NCBI GenBank assembly: GCA_010015805.1
Contig: ML978127.1
Span: forward strand, 1,426,001-1,490,000
DNA: 64,000 nucleotides
Direction of reading: 5' to 3'
From: Rhizodiscina lignyota
Taxonomy: Eukaryota
The notes below the pieces were generated by a model that was given only the letters and a program-made list of their open reading frames with translations, did no database searches and was not told the origin of the DNA. The translations under genes were made by a program, and so were the position numbers. Positions 11,452-25,800 of this stretch are shown here, piece by piece. Numbering within the stretch: position 1 is the first letter of the stretch; every line of letters begins with the position of its first letter.

Positions 11452-13514
11452 TCATCTCATAAATCCATAGTATAACTTCGAATACCGTACTTTGTTCAGC
11501 GGGGAGCTCGCTGTCCCAGTGATCCTCACGTCGCCGTACATCCACCCTTTATCGCCCCAATAGATCTTCTCGCAGTTCATATCTTCAATCAACTGCGCTA
11601 AAAGCTGCAAGTCGCCGTACGTCGATGGTTGCGCGCCTTTCGGATGGTATCGTGCCATCCCTTCCGCCGCTGCGGCAAGCACGAACAAGAGAAAGGTGAG
11701 AACGATGAGTGGAAGGAGGTCGACCACAACCACGTAATTCACTGACAAGGCATATGCAAATATCCATTGCACAAGACCCTTGAATGCGAAGAGCAGTAAA
11801 GCTGGCCAGTCCAGGAGCGTCTCCATGCACCAATTCGGGTCGACCTTCGTACCATTATTGCGTGACGCTCGCCGCCAAGCTCGCTCGTCCCGTAAGACAT
11901 TCGTTAGCAGCTCGCAATAATGTAGTCCTAGGACAAGGGGTGCTTGGAAGCAAGATTGGATAAAGATACCAAGCAATTCGCGCTTCTCGGATACGGTGAG
12001 ATCCGCGAATTTGAACCAGATTTGCCCGAACCACGCCCAGTAGCCAGCGAGATTGGCACCTGTGGTACTCCAGATCTGCACATAAGACTCCTCGGCTTGG
12101 CCTTTGATAGCCGATGCGACAGCTACGATAATGACGAAAATGGCCGAGAGAGAAAAGAGGAGCCAGAGTGCTATGTTGATGCGCCGCACAGCTGCGACAA
12201 CATCGCGAGCAGAAGGTTGCCTTTTGTTCGGACGAATTAGCGTCTGTCCTGGCTTGCTGGAAAGCGTCTTGAAAGTTTTCGCGCTGCTCGAGCTGTGTTG
12301 AGTGGACACGGAGACATCCGACAAAAAGGTCGCTGCCTGAGCAGGGTATGTTGCTCCTGGTTTTTCGAGCCTGATTGTTCTGGAAATTTGCGTCCAAGAC
12401 CGACTCAGGATACCGCACTGTGACTTGTTTGCAAGCCCTGCACAACCCGCTGGGCTTTGCCCGCTTGACCTCAAAGCCACAAGTGGATTTGAGCTCCAAG
12501 TCTTCACCAGCTTTGGATTTGCGAGAAGGCTCCACATTGAGATCATGAATTGAATAAAGATGGCACATCCAACCACGAGTAAGGCCATGCCACTGATGTC
12601 AATACCGTATTCGGGGCCATCATACGGGGCACTTGAGATATCATCTTTGCCTTCCGAGAATCCCAAGACTTGAATAGTGGTGGTCAAGAGCGCTAATGAG
12701 CCGTATGCAAACACCAAGGATGCCGCTGAGATTACGTTGGTGTACCATTTGTTCGGCGCGTGAGAATGAGACACTGCGAATAAGCGTGGGTTCGAGTTAA
12801 ATCGCAGCCTGCCTTCTTCCCATAAGGACCATCGAAGGGCGGTCGAGTGGACCCGCCCCATACAGTCGAACACAGCGGTTAAGGCGTAATTCAATAGCAA
12901 TCCTATCAGAATTGCGGCAGCATGCGAAACTTGAAGCGCTCTATGACCGGATAGGTAGTAATCGTCCGGACTTGGCCACGACCATGCTGTCATTCCAATC
13001 GATGCCATGGTACCTTTAAGAAACGCTGGAGGATGCAATGCTCCAGCATTGACAAGATAAGCACCAAAGCCTATTGCGACGATGGCGATAATAGCAGCAA
13101 TCCCAAGTCCGAGAGCGCAAAGATTCCGCGCTGCACGGCGAGTCAATCGATTTACTGCTGGCGACCCCAATTCAAAGATTGTCGTGAAAGGGCCCACATC
13201 ACCATGTGCGTGCATATTGTTGCCCGATTCAGATCCATCTCCGCGAAGTTGCTTCCCTTTGGACAGAACGCCCCAAAGCCATGGACCTGCGCCCAGCTGC
13301 TCTGGAGAAAACTGGCCATCCGCTGAGGTGAAGCTCGAAGAGCATTGATGGTTTCCGTCAAGGCAGAATTCAGGATCACACTCTGGGTGGGGATGTGATA
13401 TGGAAATTGCGCTTTCGTCCCTTTTCGCTGTTAGGACCTTATGGAGAAGGCGGTGAACGGTCTTCCATACCTCGTGATGCTGCGGCTAGGCTGTGAAAGG
13501 TATGCGTTCGCCAT
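11452..13514 (-). CDS. Polytopic membrane protein of unknown function (about 10 hydrophobic helices); 2 exons
   Basis: 587-aa ORF is open upstream to a short intron (about 13421-13470, GTATGG...CTAAC...AAG) and ATG 13514; C-terminal GAQPSTYGDLQLLAQLI...WGDKG resembles an uncharacterised fungal family (from recall, not searched). Confidence 0.8.
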
Positions 13515-14689
13515 GTCTCTACTCTTGACAGAGCATTACCTTGAGGCCGGGTTCAGCTCAAACTCAATCAGGAAAGTTGCTGTGCCAGAACCCGACACTG
13601 CGTTCCCTGCCGAATAAGTTATATCAACCGTGGCATCGCCCTTCATCGCTTTCCCTTGTTGCCTCTCTCATTCTTCGGCTATCAGCCTTCGATAGCAAAG
13701 TCTATGTACCTAGCGTTAATGGCATCTTGAGCCCAGACTTCGTCATTCACATGCTAAATGTAGGTCTCAGGGGCATGCGAGAGCTGATACCAGCCCAGGA
13801 AGGCCGGATGTCCTGTTAGAGCCATTCTACGCTGCGTAACCGCAAAACACGCGGTTCAGAAAACAGCAATAGTCAACTTGCTGACAGGAAGGAGTACAAG
13901 GCTGTGAAGAGTTGGAGCAATGGGCACTGCGGATGGGTGGAAGCAAGCTGAGGCCCCCACGCGTCAATTTTAGTGGCTTCACTGGGCAACTTGGCTTGGC
14001 ACCGGAAACTTTTTCAATTGGCCAGGCCAGACTTCAACCCTTCTCCATATTCTCCCAAAGATGACCCATCACCTCGTCGCCTTACTGCAATGCCGTATCT
14101 GCCTTGAGCGTTGCTATTGTTTTAGGTTGCGTTCGAAGCGCGTTCGAAGCGCGTTCCGCTGGCATACCATTCGCAATGGCGTCAAAAAGGCGCTCTGCGC
14201 CTTTACGTTGACTGACGACCCTTGCATCAGATATCCCAACGTCAACTCCCAACTCTCTAAGGAAAGAGAGTGTACAGCTCCCAAGTTGTCTTGACCTGGC
14301 AGTGCAAGACTCCATATAGCATGTGGAAACTTTCGCTCCCCGGAACTCAAGCTACTATTGGTCCCTCCCAGCACAAGAGGCATTTCTTAGCAGGGTGCAG
14401 AATCCCAATGTTTTCAGCTCCAACGTATTCTCCGCAACTACGGAGTAAGCCTCGCGTCACTTCCTTATCGACCGGCTTTGGCGAAGGTTTTGGATTCCAA
14501 TCGCAGCACGCGAACGGTTCATGATCGTGGTAGGGTGGTTGTATCTGTTAAGGGTATAAGAATTGCGCAGAATCTTTGATCAATTGAACCACACTGCACA
14601 CCACTCAATTGACTCTTCAACTTCTACTACAATCTTCTACAATTGTCCCAATTGGCCCAATTGTGTCTATCAATCATCCTTTTTCAGCC

Positions 14690-15691
14690 ATGCAGTCACG
14701 AATCGGTGTCATGTCCACTGGGCTTATCGTTGTTTCGGCCCTTGTTCTTCCCTTTGCCGGAGTGAGCGCGGTACATGGTCCCCAGTCGGGACTGATTGCC
14801 CACATCGATGAAGCCTGGAGCAGCAACACAGGAAGCGATTGGAATCTTTGCGGGCCGTGGGGAAATTGTGCACCTGTTTCGCATCTCTGCGGAACATTTG
14901 GCTGCGCCCCAGCCGAGAGCGTCTGCCCACCATGGGGATGCGACCAACCGTATTCAAGCCAATTGCACACAGAGACGAAACATGCTAATATTTGAATAGA
15001 GACTCCGCTCCCTCGGGATCAGATAACCCAAGTAAACCAGAGTTCGCCGAAGCGAAGAGCGACCAGCGTCCCCTCACAAATCAAGACCAATTCGCTCAAT
15101 CCGGAAATGCCGCTCGATGCCCCTATCCATGGGGATGTGGCAATACGTATGATGCATTTTCAAATGTTCTAATCATTTTCCAACTAACTTTCAATAGAGC
15201 TGGACTAGCTGGACCTCAGATTATTAACGGGCCCCAACCCGATGCCTGTCCGTACCCGTGGGGTTGCGGTAGCACGTAAGGTCTCGTTTCAAATGTTCAG
15301 TTCATGATTCAGCTAACTTTTCAATACGCTAGCCAACAGATTATGAACGAACCCCAGGATTCCGGATGCCCGTATCCATGGGGATGTGGTAGTGGTAGTC
15401 GGTATGACGCCCTCAAATGCATTCTGGATTTGCTTAACTAACATCAACAACGCTCAGCGCTCGAGCCAATCCTGAGGCTCAACCATCCTCGGCGCAATCC
15501 GGGAGCTCAGATGGATCCCAGCCAGCTCCAGCACAGAACCAATCCGGGATCAGTAATCAATTAAGCATCTGCGGTCCATGGGGTTGCATGCCACTGTCAG
15601 TGCCATTTACCTGACGTGGGATATCTGACAATTGACTGTTCATAGTGCCGGCCTCCTCGAGCAGCGTGATGGAGCCCACAAGGTCTTGTAG
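14690..15691 (+). CDS. Secreted-type multi-core repeat peptide precursor (245 aa; seven C-x(4-5)-C cores, CPYPWGC x3); 6 exons
   Basis: Exons 14690-14949, 15000-15146, 15198-15275, 15333-15401, 15458-15595, 15646-15691; five 50-57 nt GT-AG introns with branch sites, all phase 2, give one open frame; hydrophobic signal-like N-terminus GLIVVSALVLPFAGVSA. Confidence 0.85.
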
Positions 15692-16026
15692 ATCTACCTC
15701 CCCGATCGAGAAATCAGACTCTGGTCTCGTTTAGAAAGCTTCATTTGACCTTTGAAATTCAAATTCCTCTACAGAAATCTATGACAAGTCTGTAAGAGCC
15801 GTTTGAAGGCCGTTTCTCATCTAGCGCCTTCCATTATTCTTTCTTAGCTGTGTTTCTAGGTTCATCACTCCCTTTGTACGTGTTGTACGAATTACAATAG
15901 GCCTACTACGTTCAAAAGTCATTCCTTGCATCTGCGCTTGCATGCTTATAACGAGCTCCCTTCTAATTCAAGGAGCAGTCTAGAGAGTATTCAGCCTACT
16001 CATTCTCTCCATGTTCCCCACGTTTG

Positions 16027-17337
16027 TTAATGGTGAAAGCGTATCGGCTGTTGAGCATGTTAACAAGGGTTCCATGTTTGAATTTCGGTCGGACAGCGAA
16101 CCTTGACCTCTTCGACTCCGTCAAATAAGCAACAATCCCGGATAAAGAATGCTGGGTACGATGACGAGATCGGTTCGTATCGGTTGGAAGAGGCGATCGA
16201 GTGCGGATATCCAAAGTCAAATGGAACAACGGCTTCGATTTTTTCGATGTCGGCCTCCGAGAGATTGATCTTGAGAGCATCGATGTTCTTCTGAAGATGC
16301 TCAAATTTCCTTCCTCCGATGATCGGGATAACATATGGAGCCTAACAGCGTTCAGCATGAACCATAATAGCAAAAGAGAAAAAGTCCGCATACTTTCAGC
16401 ATACAATAGCGCAGAGCCACACCCAAGGCATCCGATCCTTGATTCTTACCAATATCCTCCATCACAGCGCCGAACTTCTTGTATGTCTCAGGCGATGCTC
16501 CTCCCAAATCATCTGTAAAGGATCTCCCACTCTTCTTCTCCGCGGTAGTTTTATCTTTGAACTTGCCGCCGCCAAGCGCACTCCACACTGTGATCCCCAT
16601 ACCTTCCGCTTTGCACATTGGAACAACATCCCGCTCAATCTCGCGATCAACAGGATTCCAACGGCCCTCGTACACCACGAATGGTGTCAGTGCGTGTTGA
16701 CGCGCGTACTCATTTGCTTTGACAACGACCCAGGCAGGCCAATTACAGACGCCAAGGTAGAGGGCTTTCCCATCGCGGACAACAAGATCAAGAGATTGCA
16801 TCAGCTCAGGGATAGATGCCGTATCTTCCCACCCATGAACGTACAGGACATCGACATAGTCTGTTTGCAAATTCTTCAAGCTCTGGCTCAGCGACAAGCG
16901 GAGACTCTTCTTGTTGGTGCCGCCATAGTTGGAGAGAATGCTCTCTTCGGGTTCCAAAAAGGCGAATTTAGGCGACACAGTGTATTTCGTCGCAATTACC
17001 ATCTGGTCGCGAAGGTTACGAGCAGTCATCCACTCGCCAATCCACTTCTCGGACTCGCCAGCCATGTACATGTTGGCCGTGTCGATAAAGTTTCCACCCG
17101 AGGCATGAAAATGGTCCATTATAGAAAATGCTGTATCTTTCGAGCATTTACCTAACAATCCCTTCCTTTGACAAAAGGTTAGCGCTGAATATAAACTCGG
17201 ACTAAGAATCTGTACCAGATTTCACCGAAATTCATCGATCCCAGACATATCGGAGAGACTTTGATGGAAGCGGAAGGACTGAGGATTCTATGGTACGCAA
17301 GAGGGGACTTTGCCTTGAGAGAACTGCTTAATGACAT
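16027..17337 (-). CDS. Aldo-keto reductase, aryl-alcohol dehydrogenase/norsolorinic acid reductase-like; 4 exons
   Basis: VSPICLGSMNFG, GGNFIDTANMY, VIATKY, LQTDYVDVLYVHGW, YLGVCNWPAWVV, PIIGGRK motifs; introns near 17214, 16373 and 16102. Confidence 0.92.
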
Positions 17338-20187: not shown

Positions 20188-22180
20188 CTATAGCTTTGCA
20201 GCGGCAGAGCTCTTTCCCTCTTCCCTCAAAGCTTGAATAACCTCCGTGGCCCCCCTCTCCCCGCTTCTTACAGCGCCTTCCATATATCCCTTCCATTCGT
20301 ACGCGGTCTCTGTTCCAACAAAATGGACACTTCCGTGCTTTTCTCTCAACGCACTTCCCACCTCGGTCATCAACCCAGGTGGCATCGCAGGGCAAGGGCA
20401 GCCCTGGCTCCATGTGTCCTTCCACCACTCTTGCTCGATCGTCTCGATTGGTTCCGGAACCTTGTCCTCGCCGCCCACAAACGGACCGAATGCCCGGCGG
20501 ATGTGGTCGACACCAGCAGCACGGCGCTCATCTTTGGAAAGTCTCGACCAAGCACGTCCAGCATCTGAACTTATCAGCACAATACAGACTACGAGATTTG
20601 AGACGACTCACCTCCTTCCGAGAAACATGTCAAGGCGTAGAGACCCTGAGAGTCGACTGATGTGTCCCTCGTAACACAGAATGTCCCATACGCCGACTGA
20701 AGAAGGCCGCAGAGACCAAAACGACGCCACCAAGGCTCTTTCCATGCAATGATCATCTTGGCGGTGTAGCCATGAACGGTGCCTCGGGAAAGTTTGAATT
20801 TTGTCTCGCTGAGTGGCGGCGAGAACGAAATTTCGTGGTAGACGGGGGTAGGCACAGAGACAATGACCCGGCGAGCAAGGAAGCTGCCACGAGCTGAAGT
20901 GACGTGAACACCTTCGGAAGTCTCCTCAATGTTGCGAACAGGAGAGTTAAAGAGGATGGTATTCGGGCTCAAGGAGCTGGCTATGCTTAGCGAGAACGAC
21001 TGAGTTCCTGCGACCAGTTCAGTATCACCTCAATTCCAGTGAGTGAGGGGGATTACCAGCAACAAGACGCAGATACTGCCCACCATCTCTCCGATCGGAT
21101 CGCATGGCCATGATCCCGCCTCCACTCTTGCAGTAGTCGAGGAAGAAGAGACAGCTGACTTCACGCGCCTCCAATCCAAGCATGGCTTTACACCAAATGT
21201 TGATCGTTCCGTGCGCAATCTTACCGCCTCCTTCAGATGTAACGAACTCTTCCATCGACATCTTGTCATAGTCTTTGCCTAAGGCTTTGCACGATCCCAC
21301 AGGATCCGAAACATCAATCTTGTGGCAGAGGCTCTCAAACAGGTCGCGAACCTGTACCATATTCGCAACACCACCCTTCTCACCCTCTTTCTATAGTCTC
21401 GTTAGCTTTCTCGACTCGCGGATACAATGAAGCAATGGCACTCACCTCCGGTACTCCGCCGTACGGAAATGTATGAAAACTCCCATCCGCAGGGTCCTCC
21501 ATCACAATTCTACCCATCGTATTCTGCGTCACAGTCTTGAGCCCGTACTTTCTGCACAGTTCATACATGCGGATCTGATTAGTGTCATTAATCCACGCCG
21601 CGCCCACGTCCTGCTTCCCACCTGCAATATCACGTGACCAGGTCTTTCCGCCAACTCTTCCTCGTGCCTCCAAAACGACGCAGGAATAGCCTGCCTTTTG
21701 AACGTCTAGTGCGGCTTGCAGCCCGCTGAGACCAGCACCCACAACCACGACATCGACTTTCTTCAATGGAGCTTCGGGAATCGCTGCAATGGCTTCGACC
21801 TCGAAGAGCATTTCCGGGCTTGCGAGCGCCGGCACGGGGATCAGCGTGGTAGCAGGCAAATGGCCCTTCAGAAATTCGGTCGTCGGCTTACGGTGCACTC
21901 TGTTGTTTGGGTCGTAATTCACGACGAGGTACGTGAGCTTCAGGATGTCATTAGGCGTTGCGCCGGCCGCGTCGAGGCATTGCGAGAGATTACGATACGC
22001 TTGTTCGACTTGCTCGGACTGATTGGGCGAGAATGTGCCATCTTCGTTGGCGCCGACTTGACCGGCGAAGGTGATGATTTTGTGGGAGGTAGTCGCCGTG
22101 GTTATGTGGGAGTAGAGTGGCCGCTGGTCGCGGACGTACCATGGTGCGAGACTTGTTATACCTGATTTAGGAGCAGACAT
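20188..22180 (-). CDS. Fusion of N-terminal RidA/YjgF/YER057c domain and flavin-containing amine oxidase; 4 exons
   Basis: N-terminus FAGQVG...DILKLTYLVV...LPATTLIPVPALASPEMLFEVEAIAA (RidA fold) runs without a stop into VVVVGAGLSG, LEARGRVGGKT, DVGAAWIN; C-terminal VHFVGTETAYEWKGYMEGAVRSGERGA. Confidence 0.92.
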
Positions 22181-22863
22181 TTTGATTGGTATATGTGAAA
22201 AGTATAAACAGTAGAATATGAAAAGAACGAGAAGCTGTGAAATGGACGATTTGTACTAGAAAAGAGAGGTGAAGCTTGCAGAGATTGGACCCAACAGTTG
22301 CTATCTGATATGCACGCTTACGTTTCAGAAGAGTCTCAATTGCACTTCTGGGTAGATATACCAGTAACAGGACGCTCTAGTCCGACTCCTATTCCGCTTT
22401 GAAGCTGAGATGCTGGCATTGCGGGGTTCGAAGCTCGTAGTAACGTGGCTTCGGCAAGATCGGAGAGAAAAGTTGTACCCGGCGCTGTCGGCTGTGAAAC
22501 CATTGATAAACGAATCTAAAATAGGAAAGAGAGACTTGACAGGCACAGAGACGCATATATTAGTGGAGTAAGATATCTTCTTTCCACAAAGAATCCCTCG
22601 CTAACATATCGATCCATGCTGAACTCGATATTTGGCTTCAAATCACAAGGTGCGTCAAAATCACCCATTGCAAGTCACCGCAGAAACATACGCGAAAGGA
22701 CTTGTATTGAGGCGAGCAATTGGGTATAATACAATATCCAATCCGACTCCAGCTCCATCGCAATGCTTCTTTAACGAAAGACGAAATTCAAATATTCCTC
22801 AGCGCCAAAATAACCCCGTGCCGTGTCCTTTTCTGCTTGTCCTTTTAGCAGCCGTTTACTTTT

Positions 22864-25800
22864 CTACTTTTCCGGCAACTCCCTGAAGACCGTCTTGAAA
22901 ATATCCTTACTCTTATATAAATTCAGAACCCTAAGCCTCTCATTGTTTAAATGCGCACTGTCGCTCGCCTGGCCACATGGCAAATGCGCGGCGGGTGCAC
23001 CAAACTCCTTCTCCAGAAAACGTATCGCAGGAATAGATCCACCCTCGCGAATGTAAAGCGGTTTCCGTCCCTTTGGTCGAGGATCTTCAATCATGCTTTG
23101 GAGCGGGCTGGTTGGGTCACCGACCCTTTCATTCGGAGGCGTGACGCTACCGCTTGCGAGTGTCGAGGATGTTGCTGGTGTAACTCTCTCGTCGCCACTC
23201 AATTTGCGAAGTGGCAAGGGTTTGCGCGGAGCCATAGAGCTGCGACGCCGAGGCTGAATAGGTCCCCAGACGTGCATGATAGCATTCTCAAGAGTGTGGA
23301 AGATCTCATTGTTGAAGTCGCCGAGCCATGGCTCGGCCTGGTGATCGATTGTGACGGTCAGGCGATTCTTTGATTCGAGCTTGTCGAATTCTGAGTGAAG
23401 GAAATCGATCAGGCTTGCGGCAATGACCTCCGCCTCTTGATTTGGCACGAGGCGCATAGAGAGGGCAGCTCGCGCCAGGCGGGGAATGATTGTAGAGTTC
23501 TCCGGTCCAGAAGTCTGAAAGCGGTGGATGGTTAATGACGCTTCTCGCCAACGTCGCATGAGTGAAGCAGCAAGCGCTTCTGGTTCTCCAAGGTCAGGAT
23601 TGCGCTCGAGTAAGGTGAAAGTAATATCGTCGTAGAGTGCTTGCTCGTCTTCCGTGAGAGGCAAGACCGGATCGTAAAAGCCTGGTATCTCAACGTGGCC
23701 ATTCTTGCCAGTCAGCTTAGCCAGCAGCATCACCAGATCCTTCAGCGACTCATCAAGCAGTGCGCTTCCATCAACACCACTATGAAGATCAGGATGTTGA
23801 CTCTCAACCTGGACAGTCGCATGGATCACGCCTCGGAGACCATACGTCAAGCATGGCACATGGTCATCAAGCCAATAACTGTTGGCGAGCAATATCCAGT
23901 CAACATCGCCGATGAGATGCTTATTCTTCCGGATTGCGTCGGCAAATCCTCTAGATCCACACTCTTCCTCTCCCTCAATGAGGAAAGTAACATCCGAGTT
24001 CAGGGATTTCTCAGCTACTAACTCAGCCACCGCATAGATTGCAGCCATGACGGGACCTTTGTTGTCAGAGACACCACGTCCGTAGAAGTAGCCATCAATG
24101 CCTTCCATCGAAAACGGATCAATGATCCATTTCCCCCTTTCATTCTCTGCAGCAATCACATCATAGTGACCATAGAACAGGATCTTTCTCCTCGACTGTG
24201 ACTGTGAGGGATTGCCTCTGAACTTTGCCAAGATGATCGGATTCAGCGTATCCTGTGTTGCAAGCATTTCGGTTCTGGCCCCGAAATTCTTGAGCACGGA
24301 TCGGAGGAATGAAGCGCCTCTGTGGCAATCTGGTTTGTATCGTGGGTCGGATGAAACTGTTCTGTATGAAACGAAGTGCTTGAGCGACTCGGACAGCTGT
24401 TCGTTGCTTGTTCTCTTTGGCTCGGTCGATGCTTCAGCACAGTCTGCGATATCCCAAACAGCAATGCTATGGTCATTGCCTCCGGTAACAAACAGCCTTC
24501 GTTCCTTGTGCTCGATGAAGGCCGATGCCAAGATGCGTCCTTCGTGAGCACGATAACAACTGGCCGATTCATACCGGCGGTCGAACTTCTCTACGATCCC
24601 ATCAAGGCCTGCGGAAAACAGAAAACCTCCTCCAACAGCTATAGTTAGGACATCTCCCACGTTGGCCTTCAAGCTGCGGAGAAGCTGCTTCGTTTCGAGA
24701 TCCCAGACGTTTATCTCGCCATCAGTCCGGCCACTGTAAAGGAACGAACCGTCAACCGCGATTGTAAGCACAGACTCTCCCTCTTCTCTGCCATCTTCGA
24801 GCACGAACAGTTCAGATATTGCGCCTGAATTGTGCTCATCCAGTGTCCAGACCTTAATAATGCCGTCACCTCCACCAGAGATGAGCACTTCCCGAGCATT
24901 CTCTGATACAGGACGAGCAAGGGTCATGCAGTAGACGTATCCAAAGTGAGCAAACTGCTGAAGGTTTTGCTTCGGGATCTGCAAACTCTGACCGCCAACA
25001 GCATGACGGGCATAATCTTCAGGATCCTGCGCTGGTGGCGTGCGGGTACCTCCAGGGCCAACAGAGTCAAAGAAGCGGTGGAATGAAGGGTGAGCAGTTG
25101 GGCTCGGACGAGTTTTTGAATCCTTTCTTTTCAAGTCGTACCACTGAATGCTCGTATTTTGCGCACCAAGGTAGACTGTTTGTAGGAACGAAGAGTATGC
25201 GACGCAGAAGACATCACCAACATCAAATGTGGAGTAGAGAGAGTAGACACGCTGGAATGTGCTTGTGTCCCACACATTCACGATACGATCTCCTGCACTT
25301 GAAAATAGATGTCTTCGATCTGGGGAGAGATGGAGAGCTAGTACACTACTCCGGTGGGCGTAGATGACACCAGATCGCTCAAAGGTGTCGATGGAGTACG
25401 CCTGTAAGAGTAAGTGGCTTGAAGACCTCCGAAAGTGGAACAATCTACCAATATTTGTCCTTTCTGAGTTCCTGCAAATATTCGGTCCAACGATACAGCT
25501 AGGGCGAGTATAGAGGTATTATGCCTCATGCGGTGAGCCAGGGATGGCCTGCTGTCGCGTGACGGTCTTGTCTGGTCCATGAAGGCATTGCCATTTCGTT
25601 GTGACTTCTCGAATGCACCTTCTGTGAGATTTGAGGCATCCACGCCTCTGTTTGAAGAGTTCATGAGCCGCTCTTGAGAATCATGGTGGTTATTGTTCAT
25701 TGCTTCTTCCGGAATAGCTGACGTTTTCTCAGGTGGCGCCAAGCCACCACTGCTTTTGGATCGCGACGATTTATCCTTTTTGCCATCACAGTTGCAGAGA

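Follow-up and report, generated by a model that had tools for sequence, protein, structure and literature searches.

Cysteine-bracketed aromatic loops, one of them triplicated, in a predicted secreted protein of Rhizodiscina lignyota and its few relatives

The gene described here lies at 14690-15691 on the forward strand of a 64,000-nt stretch of the genome of Rhizodiscina lignyota (the whole stretch is referred to below as the window), a wood fungus classified among the Dothideomycetes in the order Aulographales. It is a real, annotated and uncharacterised gene, whose predicted product carries a signal peptide and seven short loops bracketed by cysteines, three of them with the identical sequence CPYPWGC. 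We put at about one in two the probability that this product is an intact, secreted, disordered protein in which disulfide-closed aromatic turns are the working units. This reading is favoured because the N-terminal loops of the protein and its relatives (the N-module) show fixed spacing and invariant columns, because no motif is common to the flanks of the three CPYPWGC copies, because one relative (P0003, see below) has a single loop in their place, and because no enzyme typical of RiPPs (peptides made on the ribosome and altered after translation) was found nearby. A first-pass annotation of the window had proposed a multi-core RiPP precursor and, as its alternative, an unprocessed beads-on-a-string protein; it is the alternative that fits better.

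Gene model and annotation

The R. lignyota genome comes from a study of 101 Dothideomycetes and was annotated with the JGI pipeline (PMC7082219). The stretch of the window read for this locus was 14300-16100, over which a script rebuild of the model gave six exons, a 738-nt open reading frame (ORF) and a 245-aa protein identical to that of the first-pass annotation, with its five short introns. That annotation had called the gene hidden, which it is not: a query with exon 1 matched at 100% identity the NCBI hypothetical protein NA57DRAFT_57377 (262 aa; P0001 below), for which UniRef gives the automatic name 'Secreted protein'. The deposited protein differs from the 245-aa model solely in keeping intron 2, which adds 17 aa, the other four introns being spliced in both. 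The parts of the gene are as follows.

14690..14949, + strand: exon 1, encoding the putative signal peptide, the conserved N-terminal module and three loops; 100% match to P0001
14690-14770, + strand: putative signal peptide of 27 aa ending in VSA, read by eye (in exon 1)
14849-14869, + strand: loop CGPWGNC (in exon 1)
14888-14905, + strand: loop CGTFGC (in exon 1)
14924-14941, + strand: loop CPPWGC (in exon 1)
14950..14999, + strand: intron 1, 50 nt, GTATTC..CTAAT..TAG, phase 2; spliced in the NCBI model, read-through meeting a stop codon
15000..15146, + strand: exon 2, linker and CPYPWGC copy 1 (15118-15138)
15147..15197, + strand: intron 2, 51 nt, GTATGA..CTAAC..TAG; in frame and free of stop codons, retained as 17 aa in the NCBI model
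15198..15275, + strand: exon 3, spacer and CPYPWGC copy 2 (15247-15267)
15276..15332, + strand: intron 3, 57 nt, GTAAGG..CTAAC..TAG; in-frame stop codon at its start, spliced in the NCBI model
15333..15401, + strand: exon 4, spacer and CPYPWGC copy 3 (15367-15387)
15402..15457, + strand: intron 4, 56 nt, GTATGA..CTAAC..CAG; in-frame stop codon, spliced in the NCBI model
15458..15595, + strand: exon 5, low-complexity stretch rich in S/G/P/Q/A and the C-terminal loop CGPWGC (15570-15587)
15596..15645, + strand: intron 5, 50 nt, GTCAGT..CTGAC..TAG; spliced in the NCBI model
15646..15691, + strand: exon 6, C-terminal tail ending in HKVL, and the stop codon

All five introns (50-57 nt) run from GT to AG, lie in phase 2 and have a branch-like CTAAT, CTAAC or CTGAC near the 3' end. 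Two of the junctions are also crossed by alignments with relatives described below, that with P0002 spanning the intron 1 junction and that with P0003 continuing for 6 residues beyond the intron 5 junction. Intron 2 aligns with introns 3 and 4 with scores of 17 and 9, which were reached by none of 300 shuffles, and lies in a 74-nt direct repeat (D1) reaching into it from the codons of the heptapeptide; the 17 residues that it would encode are hydrophobic and unlike the remainder of the chain. Since it also carries full splice signals, we take intron 2 to be a true intron that is spliced out, and its alignment with introns 3 and 4 suggests that the deposited model of NA57DRAFT_57377 is probably 17 aa too long.

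The pre-protein is acidic, with a mature chain of 218 aa (pI about 4.5) and a single N-x-S/T sequon. The signal peptide claimed in the first-pass annotation has the expected features when inspected by eye (Arg4, then some 16 hydrophobic residues in a row, and VSA at the end, where the cut is predicted), in agreement with the UniRef name. No Pfam family matched the locus's ORFs on the opposite strand or in frames other than those of the model. A contig from a single DNA run (X1) spans the locus unspliced, and is probably the source assembly.

Cysteine loops and their flanks

All 14 cysteines fall into seven C-x4/5-C pairs, as first described from the letters alone, and this full pairing was not matched in any of 200,000 shuffles of the mature chain. 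The number of C-x4/5-C pairs was likewise beyond expectation (7 observed, whereas 20,000 shuffles averaged 1.26 and never exceeded 6), and a regular expression for the loops had 7 matches in the six-frame translation of the 64-kb window, all in this gene and in the frames of the model, while 30 shuffles averaged 0.33 matches and gave at most 2.

Sites at which the loops might be cut free were sought in the same protein. Dibasic pairs (KR, RR or KK), the targets of Kex2, do not occur among its 245 residues, which bears out the earlier remark that Kex2 sites are absent. The CPYPWGC copies are preceded by R, A or G (NAAR, QPDA and QDSG being the four residues before each) and followed by GNT, GST or GSG, and no flanking cleavage or recognition motif is common to the three.

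Triplication of CPYPWGC

Each CPYPWGC copy belongs to a unit made up of a spacer, the heptapeptide, G-[NS]-x and an intron. The units stand in tandem at spacings of 129 and 120 nt, the middle loop having been triplicated through tandem duplication of this exon-plus-intron unit. Counted over seven codons (4 synonymous and 17 non-synonymous sites), the copies differ by 6 synonymous and 0 non-synonymous changes (1 versus 2), 5 and 0 (2 versus 3), and 1 and 0 (1 versus 3), and copies 1 and 2 differ at each codon for which a silent change is possible. Of 51 aligned positions, 38 are identical in introns 2 and 3. Silent-only divergence of the codons, together with the divergence of these introns, indicates that the repeat unit is old and that CPYPWGC has been held by purifying selection and not by gene conversion. 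Both the synonymous-only pattern and selection on the core, as claimed in the first-pass annotation, are therefore upheld by the counts. The free divergence of the spacers that it also claims holds only in part, as those before copies 2 and 3 share Q-I-[IM]-N-x-P-Q and agree at 23 of 30 aligned nucleotides. A stretch of 25 nt is almost the same in copies 1 and 3 (repeat D2), which could represent a short conversion tract.

Relatives and family architecture

A phmmer search with P0001 against 1.84 billion representatives, with E values up to 0.001, returned P0001 itself and only three relatives, all with uninformative names and all encoded on contigs of 1.3-1.6 kb from metagenomes or run assemblies.

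P0002: 192 aa, E=6.2e-10
P0003: 248 aa, E=8.1e-5, with two near-identical cluster mates
P0004: 182 aa, E=3.4e-4, an ORF without a start codon

The three are collinear with the window protein, and a signal peptide is visible in three of the four proteins, the exception being P0004. The N-module, consisting of W-x-[LVI]-C-G-P-x-G-C, six residues and C-G-[TP]-aromatic-G-C, is present in all four, always with a spacer of exactly 6 residues between loops 1 and 2, and the invariant columns are W51, C54, G55, P56, G58, C60, C67, G68, G71 and C72. This fixed spacing and the invariant columns suggest that the N-module is a small folded unit rather than a source of separately excised peptides. A third loop, CPP[WN]GC, is found in two members and is replaced by residues other than cysteine in the other two. 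The middle loop is single in P0003, where CPPEGC aligns with the first CPYPWGC, and no loop is multiplied in any of the relatives. A C-terminal [LI]-C-G-[PT]-W-G-C loop followed by a tail is shared by the window protein and P0003 (CGTWGC), while P0002 has CASGGC in its place and P0004 is truncated. On these alignments P0001-P0004 form an unnamed family of very few members, whose parts always come in the same order.

The two full-length relatives, P0002 and P0003, both end in KSEL, although only their N-modules align with each other (45% over 31 residues), a distance about equal to that separating them from the window protein. The latter ends in HKVL, not x-x-E-L, and no alternative last exon giving x-E-L was found downstream. 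P0004 stops 7 residues past the P-P-W of the third loop position, which is the site of intron 1 in the window gene; it may represent exon 1 on a genomic contig, with the intron position conserved.

Other searches added no members. Word-indexed protein searches, made with exon 1 at longer lengths and with P0001 at near lengths, found P0001 only, and a profile search with alignment A2 found only P0001 and P0003, without recovering P0002 and P0004. The same profile had 90 pattern matches on metagenome contigs, of which tblastn confirmed none, and a degenerate DNA pattern for CPYPWGCG identified 11 single-copy loci on metagenome contigs, none of them related. Two metagenome contigs related to each other (L003:25-47 and L007:1501-1523, minus strand) contain a frame ending in TCPYPWGCGD and a stop codon, which on L007 is open for at least 60 residues upstream; these endings are probably coincidence.

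Predicted structure

The AlphaFold2 (AF2) model of the full-length protein, built from a 6-row alignment, had a mean predicted local distance difference test score (pLDDT) of 38.4, and its strands were confined to the surroundings of the loops at the two ends. For the N-module, modelled from the same number of rows, the mean was 62.4, rising to 69-76 over residues 21-50, and the model consists of beta-hairpins with the interiors of the loops forming turns. The low full-length score, an ESM Atlas model with a pLDDT of 0.40 and the hairpins of the N-module point, with moderate confidence, to a disordered chain carrying small hairpin beads.

No known fold or domain was recognised by comparison. 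ESM Atlas searches with the whole protein and with residues 28-90 gave no usable match, all structure rows having template modelling scores below 0.5; Foldseek against the PDB with the N-module model had a best E of 1.7; and a sequence profile search of the PDB gave no match at E up to 10. Pfam assigned no family to P0001-P0004, and no thioredoxin-like or other redox domain. CPYPWGC and CGPWGC had no match in a full-text search of the literature library used here.

Genomic neighbourhood

Neighbouring genes were sought in three Pfam scans, covering 26 large ORFs at 0.9-35 kb, 88 stop-to-stop ORFs at 4.2-22.5 kb out of the 171 there that reach 55 aa (together with P0001; the others mostly overlap named genes), and 27 large ORFs of which 23 lie at 36-64 kb. 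None of the ORFs scanned matched DUF3328/UstYa, tyrosinase, Peptidase_S9/prolyl oligopeptidase, methyltransferase, polyketide synthase or nonribosomal peptide synthetase, with the proviso that short exons could be missed. The neighbours identified, by Pfam unless stated otherwise, are listed below.

1-4 kb: calpain gene
8.7-10.2 kb, - strand: cytochrome P450, 4.5 kb upstream of the gene
11452-13485, - strand: uninterrupted ORF of 677 aa, multi-pass membrane protein by eye, no Pfam family; between the P450 and the gene
16.0-17.2 kb, - strand: aldo-keto reductase, directly downstream
17.7-20.1 kb: ORFs without a family
20191-22255, - strand: amine oxidase and L-PSP domain
22864-25518, - strand: open frame of 884 aa, WD40 repeats followed by Peptidase_M20
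listed after the WD40/Peptidase_M20 frame: BUD22
further on: MFS transporter, rhodopsin-like domain, GH5, ankyrin repeats, V-ATPase E, CutC and DHHC

Compared with the PDB, the P450 has only generic similarity to CYP51/CYP3A, which is uninformative, and the rest of the window resembles housekeeping genes. Two of the neighbouring frames combine domains. The open frame at 21380-22255 holds an endoribonuclease L-PSP (RidA-like) domain together with the N-terminal end of a flavin amine oxidase, of which more exons lie downstream, and may encode a fusion protein. The WD40/Peptidase_M20 frame could similarly be a fusion, or else a pair of genes that share a frame and are not separated by a stop codon.

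Sequences upstream of the gene include the following.

14555..14561, + strand: TATAAGA, a TATA-like element by its resemblance to the consensus, about 130 nt upstream of the ATG
14581..14663 (83 nt), + strand: five clustered CAATTG palindromes (CCAATTG in two cases), located in the promoter or 5' leader

The window contains 29 CAATTG sites in its 64 kb, 5 of which lie inside 14581-14663. A 14-nt string, CAATTGACT[C/G]TTCA, occurs at 14606 and again within intron 5 at 15629 (repeat D9), and either the cluster or the recurring string may be a promoter element.

Intact protein or released peptides

Under the intact-protein reading, the 245-aa pre-protein would enter the secretory pathway and act as an uncut, largely disordered chain. 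Its parts follow the order of the family, namely signal peptide, N-module of two or three loops with 6-residue spacing, linker, middle loop, low-complexity stretch, CG[PT]WGC loop and tail. The seven loops, of the general form C-[GP]-[PT/Y]-(P)-aromatic-G-C, would each be closed in the endoplasmic reticulum (ER) by a disulfide of its own, and each would hold out W, F or Y as its aromatic residue from a turn of Gly and Pro. In the R. lignyota lineage the middle loop became CPYPWGC and was triplicated by duplication of exon and intron, yielding more copies of a selected loop. Secretion, loop-internal disulfides and a role of the loops as repeated binding units in the uncut protein are all presumed here, and it is a guess that the aromatic residues make contact with a wood polymer or a surface.

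Several points weigh against this reading. The gene is known here from sequence alone, and the 0 non-synonymous against 6 synonymous changes in CPYPWGC are a pattern also expected of a repeated core peptide. Secreted proteases would probably cleave the disordered linkers, and free loops could therefore arise without any dedicated pathway. The KSEL ends of both full-length relatives (2/2) may indicate retention in the ER and not secretion. The binding role of the loops is itself a proposal, the confidence of the AF2 models is moderate and derives from the 6-row alignment, and the genomic context, including the P450 and the aldo-keto reductase, was read in a single window.

The multi-core reading of the first-pass annotation supposes a Kex2-independent precursor whose linkers are removed by an unspecified or a non-specific protease, releasing the loops (the three CPYPWGC and those of the CGPWGC type) as disulfide-cyclised peptides that may be modified further, for instance by oxidative cross-linking between Tyr and Trp. 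The anatomy given in that annotation is right, and its reading has in its favour a putative signal peptide, three identical heptapeptides under purifying selection, a copy number raised by unit duplication, and disordered linkers that are probably protease-labile. A P450 gene at a distance of 4.5 kb upstream and the aldo-keto reductase as the next gene downstream also count for it, and the report on acalitide, in its account of a disulfide-bridged fungal RiPP made from a precursor and one peptidase (PMC10840396), offers a precedent. The processing that it requires gains no support, however: no flanking motif is common to the copies, and dibasic sites are absent from the protein; the ORFs scanned include no DUF3328/UstYa, tyrosinase, S9 peptidase or methyltransferase; the relatives conserve different loops, keeping the N-terminal ones at fixed spacing and multiplying none; the P450 has no more than a generic CYP51/CYP3A likeness and is separated from the gene by that for the membrane protein; and the remainder of the window is housekeeping-like. 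We consider a multi-core precursor unlikely, and the RiPP interpretation a minority possibility without positive support. It is similarly doubtful that the gene is the founding example of a Kex2-independent multi-core class, giving rise to disulfide-cyclised, perhaps Tyr/Trp cross-linked peptides of 6-7 residues, chiefly from the triplicated CPYPWGC, with a signalling or antibiotic role.

The KSEL tails raise a different question, namely whether the protein belongs to the lumen of the ER or the early secretory pathway, with redox-active C-x4-C loops acting as a shuttle, buffer or chaperone-like device, and has lost or changed a KDEL-type tail in R. lignyota. P0002 and P0003 end alike in KSEL despite their divergence, all cysteines are in close pairs on flexible segments, and the part of a review on AGR2 that concerns its tail names KSEL beside KDEL as a replacement for KTEL (PMC10183570). 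But the window protein ends in HKVL with no downstream x-E-L exon, Pfam finds no thioredoxin-like or other redox domain, and the KSEL sample amounts to two tails, leaving only a slim chance for this explanation. A divergent alpha-type mating pheromone precursor with Cys-bracketed repeats is far less probable still. The window protein does combine a signal peptide with repeated Cys-bracketed peptides, and according to the passages on Dothideomycetes in PMC6339444 some alpha-pheromones of this class have two conserved cysteines; a Cys-bracketed repeat with Pro-Gly is quoted there for Xylona. It lacks any dibasic site, on the other hand, X-P or X-A dipeptides precede only one of the three copies, and pheromone precursors have nothing that corresponds to its tail or to the conserved loops near its two ends. 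We would give as little credence to a chance ORF or annotation artefact without function. Low-complexity sequence, a gene known from DNA alone and the disagreement of the NCBI and six-exon models over intron 2 are all compatible with such an artefact, but the gene has significant homologues from independent samples, a cysteine pairing seen in 0 of 200,000 shuffles, heptapeptide changes that are synonymous only, five canonical short introns that restore one frame, and a C-terminus that matches relatives. The probability left over by these readings falls to other functions, which we do not name.

Implications

If the loops work within the intact chain, function would be carried by disulfide-closed turns of 6-7 residues on a disordered scaffold, with copies added by duplication of exon and intron. 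If instead they are released, they would represent a route to small cyclic fungal peptides that is invisible to genome mining based on Kex2, since the published surveys of KEPs, repeat proteins that Kex2 processes, require Kex2 sites. The family has no Pfam model and no solved structure, and no paper on it was found in the literature searched. Our claim is a modest one, of a well-defined orphan family with an unusually clear signature of selection on a seven-residue loop and not of a demonstrated new pathway, and there is nothing in it as yet that should surprise a specialist.

Comparison with known systems

KEPs are defined by repeats separated by Kex2 sites, and the search procedures of both KEP surveys demand such sites (PMC7329392, PMC6339444); dikaritin-type cyclisation additionally requires DUF3328 proteins, in the account given in the former (PMC7329392). 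The window protein resembles KEPs and dikaritins (ustiloxin, phomopsin and asperipin-type) in its ER signal peptide, its tandem near-identical motifs and the presence of Tyr and Trp in the motif, but its repeats are Cys-bracketed and, with 0 dibasic pairs, no Kex2 site lies between them. Tyr is third in CPYPWGC, which is not diagnostic of a dikaritin or ustiloxin-type cluster by itself, and DUF3328 was absent from the ORFs scanned nearby. RiPPs of the cycloamanide/MSDIN type have a short precursor with a single Pro-flanked core and a dedicated prolyl oligopeptidase; here the precursor is 245 aa long with multiple loops, and the ORFs scanned contain no Peptidase_S9.

Subgroup II of the Pezizomycotina alpha-pheromones (Le Marquer et al. 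2019) is similar in having a secreted precursor with short repeats bracketed by two cysteines and containing Pro and Gly. In alpha-pheromone precursors, as the description in PMC6339444 has it, KR followed by X-A or X-P (STE13) dipeptides stands before each repeat. The window protein is without KR or STE13 signatures (NAAR, QPDA and QDSG include no KR), its rings differ in size and sequence, and it has conserved non-repeated loops at both ends, so that an alpha-type pheromone precursor was rejected.

Contryphan precursors are generally described as carrying one peptide each. The contryphans of Conus, whose motif is given in the relevant section of PMC5100318 as C-O-(D-W/D-L)-X-P-W-C with C-terminal amidation, share with CPYPWGC a ring of seven residues from Cys to Cys that starts with C-P and contains P-W and an aromatic residue. 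In C-P-Y-P-W-G-C, however, P-W stands one position away from its place in contryphans, with a Gly just before the last Cys; with a different register, and in an animal venom without homology, the resemblance is convergent at most. Acalitide is a fungal ribosomal peptide with a minimal gene set whose disulfides are thought, in the part of its report that treats them, to be made by the general ER machinery (PMC10840396). Its AcaA/AcaB system, as set out there, comprises a single 30-residue core with two C-x3-C pairs in an 81-aa precursor, cyclised head to tail by a dedicated peptidase (PMC10840396). The window gene has no sequence resemblance to it and no adjacent peptidase gene was seen, and the acalitide family was rejected on these defining features.

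The tail HKVL departs from the x-x-E-L tetrapeptide of KDEL-type ER residents. A broader category is that of orphan small secreted Cys-containing fungal proteins, which have a signal peptide, an even number of cysteines and no Pfam domain, and are restricted to particular lineages. The window protein shares with these its putative signal peptide, even cysteine count, lack of a Pfam domain and lineage-restricted distribution, but differs in that its cysteines are in local C-x4/5-C pairs on a disordered chain and not in a compact multi-disulfide fold, and in that one loop has been multiplied by exon duplication. It belongs to the unnamed [LVI]-C-G-P-x-G-C loop family, of which it has both the N-module and the C-terminal loop.

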